This document shows positions 39,206-46,389 of a stretch of DNA of 64,000 nucleotides, piece by piece. The position numbers and the translations under genes are program-made. How positions within the stretch are numbered: position 1 is the first letter of the stretch; every line of letters begins with the position of its first letter. The DNA is from a virus. Lineage: Duplodnaviria; Heunggongvirae; Uroviricota; Caudoviricetes. Below the pieces are notes generated by a model. It worked only from the letters and a program-made list of their open reading frames with translations. It was not told the DNA's origin and made no database searches. The stretch lies in the IMG/VR virus record IMGVR_UViG_3300029485_000297. One strand, written 5' to 3'.

Positions 39206-40129
39206 TTGACAGAGAATAATGGAAAAAATAATTCTCAAGGGCTACGAGTATTAAGTTTATGTGGTGGCGTTGAAACAGGATTGTATGCGTTACAGCAGCT
39301 CGGAATACCTATAAGAGAATATCATACATATGAAATTTTGCCAGAAGCCATAGCAGTTTCTCAGTACCATTTTCCGTTTGTGGTACATCATGGCGATTTA
39401 TATGAAGCGGATTTTGAACAGTTCAAAGGATTTGATTTACTGTTGGCAGGAACTTGTTGCCAGTCACTTTCAAGAGTGCGAATTGAAAGTAAAGCGGTCA
39501 ATAATGGTCTTGATGGTAAGTCAGGAATTTTCTTTAAAGCAATTGAGTGTCTTAGGGCAATTCAGCCCAAATATTTCATGTTTGAAAATGTAATACCAAG
39601 TAGTGATGAAGATCTGAAGACAATGACAAAATGTATTGGTGTTGAACCTATTTTGATTGATTCAGGAAGATTTTCGTCTCAAAATCGAGAAAGATATTAT
39701 TGGACAAACATACCATTAGGTAAATTACCTGGTGAATCTCCATTAGTTTTGAAAGATATTATGGAGAATAGTGTAGATGAGAAATATTTCTATAAGAAAG
39801 ATTTTGAAATCTTGGATATGAGCAAACGTGTATGTGCAGAGTTAAAAGTCAATTCTATGGAAATGAATAGAAGAATTTATAATCCAGATTTTAAGTGCTG
39901 CACATTGACTTGTATAAATGGTGGATATCATGAAAAGAAAGTATTAGATAGTGGTAGACCACGAAAACTTACAGAAGTTGAATATGAAAGATTGCAGGGA
40001 TTGCCTGATAATTTTACAAAAATTCAGCTTAACAATCGTTGGTTATCATACTCAAAAAGATGTAGTTTGATGGGCAATGGATGGAATGAACCTACCGTTG
40101 AATGGATTTTGAGTGGGTTAAGAGAATAA
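39206..40129 (+). CDS. DNA (cytosine-5)-methyltransferase
   Basis: Motif I LSLCGGVETG, motif IV GTCCQSLS (PCQ variant), motif VI FMFENV, QNRERY, C-terminal RLQGLPDNF and GNGW. The start is probably TTG 39206. Confidence 0.75.
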   Translation: MTENNGKNNSQGLRVLSLCGGVETGLYALQQLGIPIREYHTYEILPEAIAVSQYHFPFVVHHGDLYEADFEQFKGFDLLLAGTCCQSLSRVRIESKAVNNGLDGKSGIFFKAIECLRAIQPKYFMFENVIPSSDEDLKTMTKCIGVEPILIDSGRFSSQNRERYYWTNIPLGKLPGESPLVLKDIMENSVDEKYFYKKDFEILDMSKRVCAELKVNSMEMNRRIYNPDFKCCTLTCINGGYHEKKVLDSGRPRKLTEVEYERLQGLPDNFTKIQLNNRWLSYSKRCSLMGNGWNEPTVEWILSGLRE

Positions 40130-40186
40130 AAGAAAGGAGCAAGAGGTTTGGTATACCGAAAACGCAGCGTTTACTCCTAATACATA

Positions 40187-40912
40187 ATGATTTACATGGG
40201 AAGCAAAAATCGGTTATCAAAACAAATTGTACCGATTATACAGAATTACATAGACAAGGGATGCAATGGTTATTTAGAACCATTCGTAGGTGGTGCAAAT
40301 ATTATTGATAAAATTGAATGTGACAATAAGATAGGAAGTGATATTGATAAATATGTAATCTCTGTGCTTATTGGTTTGCAGCAAGGAATTGAACCACCAA
40401 AAGAAGTATCGAAAGAATTTTATATTGATGTAAAAAATAATCCTGATAAGTATTCTGATTTTATAACAGGGTATATAGGATATGAACTTAGTTTTGGAGC
40501 AAAGTGGTTTGGGGGTTATGCAAAGCGTGATGATGCTAAACATCGTGGAGATATTTATTCTTACAAATCATGTATGAAGCAAGCCCCAAATCTTAAAGAT
40601 ATTCATTTTAGAACGGCTTCATTTTTAGATTATTCTAATTTACATGGGTATGTAATATATTGCGATCCACCGTATAAAAATACAACAAAATATAAAACAG
40701 GTGAATTTCCATATGAACAATTTTATCAATGGTGTAGAGAAATGTCTAAAGATAATGTTGTTATTATAAGTGAATATTCAATGCCAGATGACTTTGATTG
40801 CATTTGGGAGAAACAAGTTAAGATTACATTTGATAGCAATAGAGAGTGTAATAACATTAAGGATTTTCGAAGAGAAAAGCTGTTTGTGTATAAAAATAAA
40901 AGTTTCAAGTAA
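40187..40912 (+). CDS. Dam-family (D12-class) N6-adenine DNA methyltransferase, copy 1
   Basis: MGSKNRL...YLEPFVGGANI N-terminal SAM motif and YCDPPYKNT catalytic motif. Confidence 0.7.
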   Translation: MIYMGSKNRLSKQIVPIIQNYIDKGCNGYLEPFVGGANIIDKIECDNKIGSDIDKYVISVLIGLQQGIEPPKEVSKEFYIDVKNNPDKYSDFITGYIGYELSFGAKWFGGYAKRDDAKHRGDIYSYKSCMKQAPNLKDIHFRTASFLDYSNLHGYVIYCDPPYKNTTKYKTGEFPYEQFYQWCREMSKDNVVIISEYSMPDDFDCIWEKQVKITFDSNRECNNIKDFRREKLFVYKNKSFK

Positions 40913-41286
40913 AGCGGAATTTCTTCTGAGTTTTCAGAGAACAAATACATATAAAAATAAAGAAAAAGAGGATTAAATATATGAGTAAAGCTGTTTTAGT
41001 GTTAGATATGCCTGGAACTTGTTGTGATTGTAATTTTTGTAGAGAAATACAAGAAGGTATCGAAGCATGTTGTGAATTAATGGATGAGCCAAATGATAAT
41101 ACTCTTTGTAGAATGGTTGATAGTAAAAATGGATATTGTCAAGAAAAACCAAATTGGTGTCCATTAAAAGAATTACCAGAAGAGACTCACAATGATGAAT
41201 ATATGGATGAATATTGTGATGGCTATGATAATGGTTGGAACTCATTAAGAAAGGAAATTTTAGGCGAAGATGAGGAGAATAAGTAG

Positions 41287-41634
41287 ATGACAGTTGGTGT
41301 AAAAATATATGAAGCAAAAGATACAATTAAGAAATACGAAAACCTTGGGTATAGATTTGTTGGTGAAGAAAATGTGGGTGAAGGATACCTAAAGCTCATA
41401 TTCAGAGATCCTATTATTCAAAAAGAGAATTTAATTAAAATACCAAATGTTTCATCTACTGTTACAGGTACGATTCCAAGAGTATTTCTTTTTAAAACTG
41501 ATTTACCATTTGACGATGCCGAGAAAATAGGTGAATGGATTTATAAAAGTATTAAGAAAGGTGTGCTTGTTATTCCAGAATGTGTTGAATTTATAGGTGT
41601 AGAAGATTTGTATAAGACAGAAAGGATAGAATAA
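41287..41634 (+). CDS. hypothetical protein
   Basis: 115-aa ORF. Confidence 0.4.
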   Translation: MTVGVKIYEAKDTIKKYENLGYRFVGEENVGEGYLKLIFRDPIIQKENLIKIPNVSSTVTGTIPRVFLFKTDLPFDDAEKIGEWIYKSIKKGVLVIPECVEFIGVEDLYKTERIE

Positions 41635-44731: not shown

Positions 44732-44792
44732 GAAGTAATAAGAAAGAAATCTTTCAAGCGATTTTTATTAAGAATAAGAAAGGAATAGATAT

Positions 44793-45062
44793 ATGAAAAT
44801 TTTATCATTAAACAATGAACACATTAAAAAAGATACAGAAAGCTTAGGATATGGGTGTGTTTGTCCTTATTGTGATACTGTTTTTATTTTTGACAGTAAA
44901 GATATTAGTAGACCACGAACACCTTTTCCTGATCCTAAAGATTGTAAGGTTACATGTCCTAATACAAGCTGTCGCAGGATATTATCAATGGATAATCCAT
45001 GCATTCATACTTTTAAAAGCAGTGATGAAAAATATGAATTTGAACACAGGTATGACGAGTAG
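44793..45062 (+). CDS. zinc-ribbon protein
   Basis: CVCPYCDTVF...CKVTCPNTSCRR. Confidence 0.4.
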   Translation: MKILSLNNEHIKKDTESLGYGCVCPYCDTVFIFDSKDISRPRTPFPDPKDCKVTCPNTSCRRILSMDNPCIHTFKSSDEKYEFEHRYDE

Positions 45063-45663
45063 GAGAATAACTAAATGGCAGAAAAATTTTTAATAGTAAA
45101 GCAACTCGATACAGAAAAATTAAGTGGAAAAATTGCTTATTTTGTATATGAGAATGGTCATGATCCATATATTTTTGCAAATCATGAAACTTTAGAAGCA
45201 TTAAAGAAGCCATATGAACAGGAAATGGTGTTTACCCGTTTTGATGGTAAGAAAACTCTTTGTAAAGGTCTGATTAGTAGGTATCAAGGCTACAAGATGT
45301 TTGAAGACAACACATTAAAATATGGTGAGATTGAATTGAGATAAGAGAGGAGATACAAAGATGTTAAAAGATAATGGAAATAAACGAAGATTCAACGATA
45401 GTGGAGAACATGTTGAGATGATTTTTTCATACGAAGTTCCATATGGGAATAAGTATGGTTTGTCTACAGGGAATAAAGGTGTTTTTTGCACAAGAGAAAT
45501 GTATGAATTTGAGAATGTAACAGAAATTGAAAACCTCATGTTAGGACTTGCTGATATGTTGAATAAAATCAGATGTAATAATGGTGGTAATTTGAGATAA
45601 AAATATTAATACGAAAGGAGTGGGAGTGGCAGCCTTAAAGAAATTTCGCTCTGAGTAGATTGA

Positions 45664-46389
45664 ATGGTTTATCAAGGAAGTAAAAATAGATTGGCAAAAT
45701 TTTTAGTGCCAATTATTCAGAAGTATATTGATGATAACAATATTAAAACTTACATAGAACCTATGTGTGGTAGTTGTTCAATAATAGAACAGATTAAATG
45801 TGATAATAAAATTGCATCAGATATAAATGATGAACTTATTGCTTTACTACAATATGCTAAGTCAGATGCAGAGTTATCTATCGCACCCGAAGATTGTTTA
45901 TTTGAACATTATGCGGATGTTAGAGAGAATAGAAAACATGGTACAAATAAATATTCTAAAGAATATACGGCTCTCATTGGTTATTGCGCATCCTATGGCG
46001 GTAGATATTTTGAAGGTGGATTTGGTAGAGATAAGACTGGTAAACGAAATATCTATGCTGAAAGAGTTAAAAATTTGAAAGAAGATTGTGAACTACTCCA
46101 AAATATAGATATTAGATGTTGTGATTATAAAGACTTTGCAGATTATAAAAACTGTCTTTTCTACTTCGATCCCCCATATCGTAATACAAAACAGTATTCT
46201 AAACAGTCAATCAATTATGACGAATTCTACGATTTTCTTCGTAAACTTTCAGAGAATAATATAGTGTTGATAAGTGAATATAACATGCCTAATGATTTTA
46301 AGTGTATCTGGCAGAAAGAACGTAAAGTGTTGCAGAAGTCAGATAGAGTTACAGGTGAAAAAGCAGTAGAAAAGCTATTTGAGATTTAA
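45664..46389 (+). CDS. Dam-family (D12-class) N6-adenine DNA methyltransferase, copy 2
   Basis: QGSKNRLAKFLVPII...YIEPMCGSCSI and LFYFDPPYRNT. Roughly 45% identical by eye to the 40187 copy. Confidence 0.7.
   Translation: MVYQGSKNRLAKFLVPIIQKYIDDNNIKTYIEPMCGSCSIIEQIKCDNKIASDINDELIALLQYAKSDAELSIAPEDCLFEHYADVRENRKHGTNKYSKEYTALIGYCASYGGRYFEGGFGRDKTGKRNIYAERVKNLKEDCELLQNIDIRCCDYKDFADYKNCLFYFDPPYRNTKQYSKQSINYDEFYDFLRKLSENNIVLISEYNMPNDFKCIWQKERKVLQKSDRVTGEKAVEKLFEI

Follow-up and report, generated by a model that had tools for sequence, protein, structure and literature searches.

Seven methyltransferase genes in one phage genome fragment

The stretch of phage DNA analysed here (IMG/VR record IMGVR_UViG_3300029485_000297; 64 kb, referred to throughout as the window) carries seven genes for DNA methyltransferases (MTases) or MTase-like proteins, M1 to M7, which share with an RNA ligase gene a leader of common design upstream of the start codon. 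The window, ~31% GC, belongs to a low-GC Firmicute phage that is ~150 kb in size and comes from metagenomes of gut type; its plus strand has a strong purine skew and carries nearly every gene. Among 50,697 GenBank phage records there was no near-identical relative of the window, and neither a near-identical nor a leader-level match to the ~150 kb phage group; a 703-residue window protein is ~55% identical to its counterpart in Bacillus SPO1-like myoviruses. The eight genes are as follows.

39206–40129, plus strand: M1, cytosine-5 (C5) DNA methyltransferase, DNMT3-like; PF00145, 74 bits (cut-off 22)
40187–40912, plus strand: M2, D12-class N6-adenine methyltransferase, 241 residues; PF02086, 43 bits; DPPY at residue 160
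43973–44731, plus strand: M3, beta-class N4/N6 methyltransferase; PF01555, 83 bits; DLPF motif
45664–46389, plus strand: M4, D12-class N6-adenine methyltransferase, 241 residues; PF02086, 62 bits; DPPY at residue 169
52087–52917, plus strand: M5, Dam-family N6-adenine methyltransferase, T4-Dam-like; PF02086, 120 bits; DPPY at residue 188
53066–53593, plus strand: M6, 175-residue NPPF protein; NPPF at residue 87
55314–56240, plus strand: RNA ligase; PF09414, 88 bits; the only non-MTase window gene with such a leader
58584–59360, plus strand: M7, beta-class N4/N6 methyltransferase; PF01555, 113 bits; DIPY motif

An initial annotation of the window had proposed a set of orphan MTases for positions 39206–46389, and all seven open reading frames (ORFs) are indeed present at the starts given there, four of them inside that interval and the other three outside it. 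Catalytic motifs, read from the sequence, were found in every one. Six of the seven score above the Pfam gathering cut-offs (22 bits for PF02086 and 26.7 bits for PF01555), as one C5, three D12-class and two beta-class N4/N6 enzymes, and the NPPF protein joins them by its predicted fold; we regard all seven ORFs as real and intact-looking. A motif scan across all called ORFs yielded no eighth MTase.

M1 reached 75 bits against TIGR00675, under the cut-off of 100.65. Its motif IV reads TCCQ (residues 83–86), in which the proline is replaced and the catalytic cysteine kept, and it also has ENV (residue 127) and QNRER. The stretch between motifs VIII and IX is short. Its nearest solved structures are the catalytic domains of eukaryotic DNMT3A, DNMT3B and DNMT3C (E ~3e-21), with bacterial M.HhaI at E ~2e-4. 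M1 may be CpG-directed; the palindrome in its leader has an ACGT centre.

The 'three Dam-like copies' of the initial annotation are three D12-class enzymes with DPPY, of which only M5 exceeds the cut-off of the Dam family TIGR00571 (140.3 bits against 114.85; T4 Dam in the PDB is matched at E 1e-43). M2 (37.8 bits) and M4 (53.4 bits) miss it and, judged by sequence, belong to the D12 class, for which the label Dam is inappropriate. M4 has no sequence relative in the PDB. That the three are diverged paralogs is borne out by identities of 40% between M2 and M4 and of 22–26% between M5 and either of them. M3 and M7 are 32% identical to each other and have a circularly permuted motif order, with DLPF and DIPY at residues 30–31 and GSC/GSG TT near the C terminus; the PDB relatives of both are M.MboIIA, DpnA, M.RsrI and CcrM.

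M6 scored 19.4 bits against the Pfam family Eco57I, below the cut-off of 25.3, and found no NCBIfam match and no sequence relative in the PDB. Its AlphaFold model (pLDDT 82) has a class I S-adenosylmethionine (SAM)-dependent MTase fold; M.TaqI and the PacII MTase are the top Foldseek matches, the best being M.TaqI (E 1.3e-5, probability 1.0). More than 4000 homologs of M6, all unnamed, carry no Pfam domain. The predicted fold suggests that M6 is MTase-like, a minimal gamma-like protein without a separate recognition domain.

A shared leader replaces the adjacent Shine-Dalgarno sequence

We listed the 50 nt upstream of every called gene. Nearly all other window genes have a strong Shine-Dalgarno (SD) sequence (AGGAGG, GGAGA or GAGGTG) 6–10 nt before the start codon. 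The seven MTase genes have none adjoining the start codon, and the RNA ligase gene has only a borderline SD-like AAGAGGAAC, 3 nt from its TTG start and within the closing helix of its leader. Each of the eight genes follows a gap of 57–203 nt that holds a leader of ~55–65 nt. An extended SD-like box, (A)AGAAAGGA(G), lies 45–55 nt before the start codon. It is followed in six of the eight leaders by two different perfect palindromes of 8–13 nt, a few bases apart; the leaders of M1 and M4 have one clear palindrome and one that is shorter or imperfect. The third element is a box complementary to the SD region (ACUCC, GCUCU, CUUUC or ACCUUU), 0–11 nt before the start, a position that in three leader types is taken by an SD-like sequence instead. 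The window leaders, each assigned to a lettered type, are as follows.

39141–39205, plus strand: type H (M1); SD box AGAAAGGA (39141–39148), CCTGGG and palindrome GGTTACGTAACC (39176–39187); closing helix GCAG/CTGC, TTG start without adjacent SD
40131–40186, plus strand: type L (M2); AGAAAGGAG, palindromes GGTATACC and AAACGCAGCGTTT (40150–40172), ACTCC box; begins 1 nt after the M1 stop codon
43918–43972, plus strand: type C (M3); GAAAGGAGC, TGCTGCAGCA and AAATCATGATTT (43935–43958), GCTCT box
45613–45663, plus strand: type B (M4); GAAAGGAGTG, GGCAGCC, GAAATTTC (45640–45647), CGCTCT box
52029–52086, plus strand: type E (M5); AGAAAGGA, helix GTTCAC/GTGAAC around TCACATGTGA and AGCTGCGCAGCT (52043–52068)
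53012–53065, plus strand: type N (M6); AAGAAAGGTA, TTCTTGCAAGAA and ACAACGTTGT (53027–53052), TACCTTT box
55250–55313, plus strand: type M (RNA ligase); AGAAAGGA, helix AGTTCCT/AGGAACT, TCCTATAGGA and AGTGCGCACT (55270–55292)
58531–58583, plus strand: type K (M7); CAGAAAGG paired with CTTTCTG, around GTAGCTAC and GACATGTC (58547–58566)

Only these eight window genes combine the AGAAAGGA box with palindromes, and the rest of the 64 kb has no palindrome pair that contains GC. In predicted folds the SD boxes are sequestered and the region upstream of the start codon lies in the closing helix. Palindrome 1 is predicted at the apex. Each half of palindrome 2 can pair with the other half or, alternatively, with a segment upstream, so that helices compete; its U-rich 3' half is also a possible partner for a second SD-like GAGR.

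At the Rfam gathering threshold the window matched only two tRNAs, and over 38900–59500 nothing relevant appeared even at E ≤ 5, so that a known RNA family was rejected for the leaders. A literature search for such an element found no description, and the double-palindrome leader appears to be undescribed. An upstream leader peptide was likewise rejected: the candidate start codon after the SD box is not conserved, being AUG, AAG, GAG, GUG, ACG or CUG depending on the variant, and frames and stops are inconsistent. Sigma-70 promoters and intrinsic terminators as parts of the leaders were rejected as well, with counts that did not exceed those expected from shuffles.

Four of the leaders are long, with extra elements upstream.

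39003–39140, 51936–52028, 52918–53011 and 58446–58530: extra upstream elements of the four long leaders

These extras contain a hairpin, of which GGCTGGTCAGCC and CTCTGAA...TTCAGAG are examples. Three of them also hold a conserved A/T-rich box, AAGAGAATAT(A)..., whose form in relatives is GAGAATATAACAATGTAATTACAA. The extras may be terminator-plus-promoter units, a point on which the sigma-70 scan was uninformative.

Leader helices and palindromes covary as RNA

We compared the window with 80 related IMG/VR loci taken around homologs of one MTase; most loci with the window's leaders lie on contigs of roughly 90–220 kb. At least 20 leader types were found across the window and its relatives. 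The type C leader is almost invariant in ~60 loci at which the downstream proteins fall to 61–65% identity, and the 21 variants of type E differ in linkers alone, with helix and palindromes invariant. Within a type, substitutions fall in the linkers, and the strands of the closing helix and the palindromes are either invariant or changed symmetrically. Thus in relatives of type M, TCCTATAGGA becomes TCCTTAAGGA or TCTCATGAGA and AGTGCGCACT becomes GGTGCGCACC; further symmetric changes turn AAGGAATTCCTT into AAGAAATTTCTT, GGTTACGTAACC into GGTTATATAACC, CCTAGG into ACTAGT and GAAATTTC into GATATATC. Single changes in a palindrome produce G·U on the sense strand and, in intact leaders, never A·C. 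The closing helices of types H and B run through A-U, G·U and G-C series among relatives, and in locus L025 two G·U pairs of the type B helix have become G-C.

For a formal pair count, 27 distinct leaders were aligned in fixed register on the frame that they share, GAAAGGAG-NN-GAGRUU-(palindrome 1)-N-(AAA..UUU palindrome 2)-RCUCC. Pairing holds in 100% of cells for palindrome 1 and in 98.7% for palindrome 2, percentages that are partly circular, the palindrome registers having been set by the parser and anchored to the invariant flanks. Nine of the 13 palindrome pairs have changed on both sides, innermost pairs included. The covariation score was 0.451, compared with 0.131 in shuffles (0 of 500 reached the observed value) and 0.04–0.09 when the partners were slid.

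A tally by eye from the leader listings shows 13 of the 16 possible 4-bp palindromes in use as cores. The cores never used are GATC, CCGG and CGCG, all of them strongly avoided in the window, and this choice of cores argues against a single sequence-specific reader and against the display of host restriction sites. The idea that leader cores are unique sites was rejected, because the hexamer cores recur elsewhere in the window at roughly expected rates.

Leaders follow genomic slots and recur in cultured phages

To relate leaders to the genes behind them, 50 D12 MTases were aligned and grouped by leader type. A single leader heads three D12 subfamilies, and conversely one D12 subfamily (77–88% identical, with no swap of the recognition domain) sits behind four leader types. 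By these sequence comparisons, the leader tracks the genomic slot and not the MTase behind it. This disfavours DNA-level autoregulation by the downstream MTase. The notion that a palindrome is the target of the MTase that follows it was rejected, leader type being independent of D12 subfamily and recognition domain. A leader belonging to a gene family was rejected too: an ordinary SD precedes most homologs of M6 in bacterial and metagenome-assembled contigs.

In the ~150 kb group, the genes headed by leaders comprise C5, D12, beta-class and small NPPY, NPPF or DPPY MTases, together with two kinds of non-MTase gene, namely three types of RNA ligase and two proteins of the 3'-phosphoadenosine-5'-phosphosulfate (PAPS) reductase type.

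L006 15210–16529, L013 14232–15401 and window 55314–56240: RNA ligases of three types (308, 389 and 439 residues across the types) in the same slot with the same leader
L015 19617–20666 and L065 19049–20077: PAPS-reductase/PP-loop proteins behind leader ACCTATAGGT and AGATTGCGCAATCT

The swaps of RNA ligases suggest exchangeable RNA-repair cassettes, possibly directed against anticodon nucleases. The two PAPS-reductase genes have their first 10 codons in common and then diverge, which marks a recombination breakpoint just inside the ORF; they may be another DNA-modification cassette.

When IMG/VR was scanned for the pattern of the shared frame, a second, unrelated group of elements of 33–45 kb also emerged, with new palindrome pairs that include TGCGGCCGCA and AAAAAGCTTTTT, TGGTCGACCA and AAAGAATTCTTT, TGCTGGCCAGCA and AAAAAGCTTTTT, and TGTCGGCCGACA and AAAAAGCTTTTT. 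Every leader of this group precedes a DNA MTase of varying class, and a single leader heads C5, gamma, beta and DPPH MTases. Representatives match temperate Enterococcus faecalis phages, in which the slot holds a lone MTase. With one leader before four MTase classes, the reading of the palindrome as the enzyme's own target was rejected for the Enterococcus phages too. In phages phiFL1A and phiFL3A the leader fills a 55–56 nt unannotated gap before the annotated MTase gene; it is also matched at MTase genes of phiFL2A/B, VEsP-1 and AE4_2 and in unannotated stretches of EFC-1 and phiEf11, and it precedes the annotated MTase gene of the [Clostridium] scindens phage phiCs5676-1. In the predicted fold of the Enterococcus leaders, AAAGGAGU is perfectly complementary to ACUCCUUU. 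The leader thus spans gut metagenomic jumbo-like phages and cultured Enterococcus phages, and its presence in phiFL1A, phiFL3A, phiEf11 and EFC-1 makes it directly testable.

The methyltransferase repertoire turns over rapidly

No restriction enzyme was found by Pfam, PHROGs or PADLOC among the 30 neighbouring ORFs, in line with the earlier description of MTases without a restriction partner and with only an HNH gene nearby.

54547–55248, plus strand: HNH endonuclease (PF14279, PF01844), the sole nuclease-like gene near the MTases

Its PADLOC match to REase_II is weak (E 7e-4) and covers the HNH motif only. Many other neighbours of the MTases have no detectable family, and most are shorter than 130 residues; larger unknown ORFs, of 185–253 residues, are those at 42142, 46997, 47544, 56414 and 59992.

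GGCC and CGCG are absent from the window (24 and 10 expected), CCGG occurs once against 19 expected, and GATC, CTAG and GCGC are depleted, with observed/expected ratios of 0.36–0.47 (0.36 for GATC), so that site avoidance coexists with modification. The CpG ratio is 0.58, with TG and CA in excess, and the window holds fewer palindromes than expected (546 compared with 733 in Markov shuffles).

In 65 related ~150 kb genomes, the stretches reaching up to 10 kb from one conserved MTase contained ~37 MTase clusters in 52 distinct repertoires. Such fast turnover is consistent with an arms race, in which the MTase set is selected by changing restriction–modification (R-M) systems. The seven orphan MTases of four structural classes most likely serve to pre-methylate progeny DNA against several host restriction systems. 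The initial annotation had arrived at broad self-protection of this kind, and the orphan profile and the turnover agree with it; what it had missed is the shared structured leader and the absence of an own ribosome-binding site (RBS). Phage arsenals of several MTases are already known, and the seven-gene set is one more example; what it adds is a quantified repertoire turnover in one gut phage lineage.

Two further arrangements were seen in relatives. In some, an M1-type C5 MTase is split into two ORFs ~600 nt apart, and the stretch just upstream of the second ORF has a translation that by eye is Cys-rich and HNH-like, which suggests insertion of a homing endonuclease or intron. In several others, the type C leader heads another beta-class MTase (25–33% identical to M3), and directly behind it the M3 homolog, which lacks its own leader, begins at an overlapping TTG; the two genes apparently form a translationally coupled MTase pair.

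L036 7149–7637 and 8237–8782, L014 5591–6079 and L045 653–1141: ORFs of split M1-type C5 MTases
Around 9200–10900 in L013, L020, L025, L035, L037 and L066: stacked beta-class MTase pairs

A proposed translational gate for exchangeable modification genes

We favour, with a probability of about 0.6, translational gating of swappable modification-gene cassettes by the shared leader. Each MTase gene would be a swappable cassette in a fixed genomic slot headed by a conserved leader. The eight genes offer ribosomes no other binding signal, so initiation must involve the leader. The mRNA region 5–15 nt upstream of the start codon would be held in the closing helix. In most types the extended SD (AGAAAGGAG), ~50 nt upstream, would pair in cis with an anti-SD-like box (RCUCC(UUU) or CUUUC); types E, F and M would instead pair an SD-like sequence beside the start with an upstream complement. 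Whatever gene fills the slot, such a gate would keep potentially harmful nucleic-acid-modifying enzymes low or timed. In short leaders the SD box begins 1–17 nt after the stop codon of the upstream gene, so that a terminating ribosome could open the helix. The conserved leaders probably double as homology arms for the exchange of cassettes between related phages. What a shared leader implies is not a simple constitutive arsenal but genes that are expressed under control and exchanged in the manner of cassettes.

Several observations weigh against this interpretation, in addition to the partial circularity of the pairing percentages. RNAalifold gave no consensus structure on an alignment made automatically with MAFFT, a result of the 5' box being out of register between subgroups; the fixed-register alignment was used instead. 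Folding energies of single sequences are only marginally better than those of shuffles (z +0.5 to -2.0). The architecture is heterogeneous: some types enclose the SD in the closing helix, others leave it outside, and one mechanism may not fit all leader types. For four window leaders the distance to the preceding ORF is 85–140 nt, which excludes coupling to upstream translation as a general rule. Unannotated neighbouring ORFs could include a novel nuclease. Finally, an RNA hairpin does not explain the near-constant self-complementarity of the central 4 nt of the palindromes, which leaves centre-symmetric hypervariable palindromes as an unexplained structural rule. The centres could reflect homodimerisation of the mRNA through a palindromic apical loop, for which cofolding is suggestive without being decisive: the computed free-energy gain on cofolding exceeds that of shuffles for most leaders, as it does for any hairpin-rich RNA. 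They may also have a mutational origin in fold-back copying, or be under the dual constraint of an RNA stem and duplex DNA.

Among other explanations, it is unlikely that the leaders are mainly recombination modules, similar to the promoter early stem-loop (PeSL) cassettes or to integron attC sites, without a specific regulatory role. Differing genes do occupy one slot behind an identical leader, as in the PAPS-reductase pair that diverges after 10 codons, the repertoires are highly mosaic, the window encodes two tyrosine recombinases and PeSLs offer a precedent (PMC2839356, PMC4122927). Homology arms would, however, need neither compensatory changes nor G·U tolerance nor an SD/anti-SD helix, and genes without another RBS require the leader to act in translation. 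A distance of more than 15 kb separates the recombinases (at 13215 and 23045) from the cassettes. Neither an attC-like R-box nor a core site with a spacer is evident, and the leaders differ from attC in having two spacer-less palindromes inside an outer helix. A role in recombination is compatible with the translational gate as a second function. We find it slightly more doubtful still that the palindromes are DNA-level sites of type II kind, at which each MTase, or the MTase set of the phage, binds or methylates its own leader or promoter in a methylation-dependent feedback. The cores resemble classical restriction sites of 4–8 bp (GAATTC, CTGCAG, GCGGCCGC, GTCGAC, TGCGCA and others) and, like duplex sites, have a palindromic symmetry that includes the centre, and autoregulation by MTases at promoter sites is an established precedent (CfrBI, SsoII, EcoRII and MspI; PMC3874152). 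Yet one leader heads C5, gamma, beta and DPPH MTases and three D12 subfamilies, near-identical MTases without a recognition-domain swap stand behind four leaders, and the 13 cores counted by eye leave no specific reader. The palindromes reach 12–14 nt, exceeding R-M sites, their imperfect variants are G·U on the sense strand and never A·C, RNA ligase and PAPS-reductase genes carry the same leaders and a promoter signal was not detected.

The remaining alternatives are all very improbable. Some of the seven enzymes might serve other roles, such as the timing of packaging or of gene expression (as P1 or T4 Dam do), or act on RNA or other substrates, and M6 might not be a DNA MTase: it is without a recognition domain and a family assignment, and M5 is a Dam homolog in a genome in which GATC is strongly depleted. 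The diversity and turnover of MTases among close relatives are nevertheless better fitted by diversifying R-M selection than by housekeeping. Slighter still is the chance that the MTases are not orphans, an unannotated neighbour or the HNH protein being the cognate restriction or exclusion nuclease of an R-M or superinfection-exclusion module. Profile searches often overlook restriction enzymes, which evolve rapidly, no family could be detected for many neighbours and the HNH protein has its weak REase_II match; against this, that match is limited to the HNH motif, the three annotation searches were negative for restriction enzymes, most neighbours are small, MTases in relatives swap independently of their neighbours and the Enterococcus slot holds a single MTase. 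Least probable of all is a ligand-sensing riboswitch, responding for instance to SAM or S-adenosylhomocysteine, that ties MTase translation to the supply of methyl donor. SAM use is the only property common to all these MTases, a three-way junction with a conserved joining segment (GAGRUU) and variable helices is possible, and the start of the type M leader (GUUCC...AGGAU) presumably resembles the SMK box. Even the permissive Rfam search gave no match, however, the unpaired core that is conserved is tiny and varies from one leader group to another, RNA ligases, which are not SAM users, carry the leader, and riboswitch helices have no need of perfect palindromes.

Beyond the gate itself, we tentatively propose that the leader represents an undescribed class of cis-acting RNA for nucleic-acid-modification genes (DNA MTases, RNA ligases and PAPS-reductase-like enzymes) in phages of Bacilli and Clostridia, acting as a gene-agnostic gate for exchangeable counter-defence cassettes. 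Its palindrome centres would have a function beyond hairpins, such as a dimerisation of the mRNA that depends on concentration and uses an apical palindromic loop, or a double reading of one sequence as RNA stem and as duplex DNA site. The leader suggests that Firmicutes phages express anti-restriction and repair enzymes through a shared, portable and gene-independent control element. If this is borne out, the element would serve counter-defence cassettes as a natural 'expression socket', account for the free exchange of MTase genes without loss of regulation and provide a sequence signature with which to find modification and counter-defence genes in metagenomic phages.

Comparison with known systems

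Orphan MTases known from phages include T4 Dam, P1 Dam and the multispecific C5 MTases of the Bacillus phages SPbeta and phi3T. The genes described here are similarly stand-alone, have no cognate nuclease and presumably protect from host restriction, and M5 is a clear T4-Dam homolog; unlike the known cases, there are seven genes of four classes, in fixed slots, with dedicated structured leaders and a hypervariable repertoire. Tight control of a potentially toxic modification enzyme is exemplified by Mu mom, where a stem-loop over the initiation region blocks translation until Com releases it. Our leaders share with it a predicted stem-loop block on the translation of a DNA-modification gene. 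They differ in that no Com-like activator was identified and no sequence similarity exists, and in being multi-copy and gene-agnostic.

The leaders have the features of split or SD-sequestering RBSs, that is, no adjacent SD, a distant SD-like box and pairing backed by covariation, and their translational effect is predicted. In phage T4, genes 25 and 38 have a split RBS bridged by a hairpin, and inhibitory helices occur at e, soc, 49 and I-TevI (PMC3014915). The likeness lies in a distant SD that structured RNA separates from the start, or in a helix that sequesters the initiation signals. The distance from SD to start is, however, ~45–55 nt here and 22–27 nt in T4, the SD is cis-paired to an anti-SD box in most types, two hypervariable perfect palindromes lie inside, and the leader recurs at eight genes per genome and across unrelated phages, always before modification enzymes.

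PeSL regulatory cassettes mediate gene shuffling in T4-type phages (PMC2839356, PMC4122927) and, like our leaders, are short conserved regulatory modules that flank hypervariable accessory genes. PeSLs are promoter-plus-terminator units, whereas the leaders would be translational (SD/anti-SD) units with palindromes, associated with one functional gene class. Palindromes immediately upstream of MTase genes are also seen in the autoregulation of R-M MTases (C proteins, SsoII/EcoRII/MspI and CfrBI; PMC3874152). R-M operators are specific to one regulator or enzyme, whereas the palindromes described here have no relation to the enzyme that follows and covary in the manner of RNA. With the SAM-III (SMK box) riboswitch of Lactobacillales metK, the leaders share SD/anti-SD translational control, an Enterococcus host clade and the link to SAM; they differ in the lack of an Rfam match and of a conserved ligand-binding core, and in the class of gene controlled.

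Other genes in the window

The window further encodes a SPFH protein, LemA and the following features; the HNH endonuclease and the RNA ligase are described above.

13215–14105 and 23045–24085: two tyrosine recombinases (phage integrase family)
29770–31158: TnpB/Cas12f-like protein with Cas12f1-like TNB and OrfB_IS605 domains; long non-coding gaps at 29145–29769 and 31159–31419
32494–32644: adjacent phage tRNA genes, tRNA-Gln(UUG) and tRNA-Lys(UUU)
48113–50688: nicotinamide adenine dinucleotide (NAD) salvage set of three adjacent synthesis genes (Preiss-Handler route), namely NAPRTase (PF04095/PF17767), a cytidylyltransferase-like NMNAT-type protein and NAD synthase
57549–58445: radical SAM protein (PF04055), immediately preceding the M7 leader; PADLOC gives it a faint viperin-like match

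The two tyrosine recombinases sit in a genome related to large virulent-type myoviruses, where they may act in integration, dimer resolution, inversion or the recombination of cassettes. A near-perfect 19-nt palindrome, CATTTTACTCAGTAAAATG, lies at 31318–31336 in a gap flanking the TnpB-like gene; this gene and its flanking gaps may be an IS605-type element with its own guide RNA inside the phage. Phage pathways that reconstitute NAD counter NAD-depleting defences, and the NAD gene trio beside the MTases may be a further counter-defence module.

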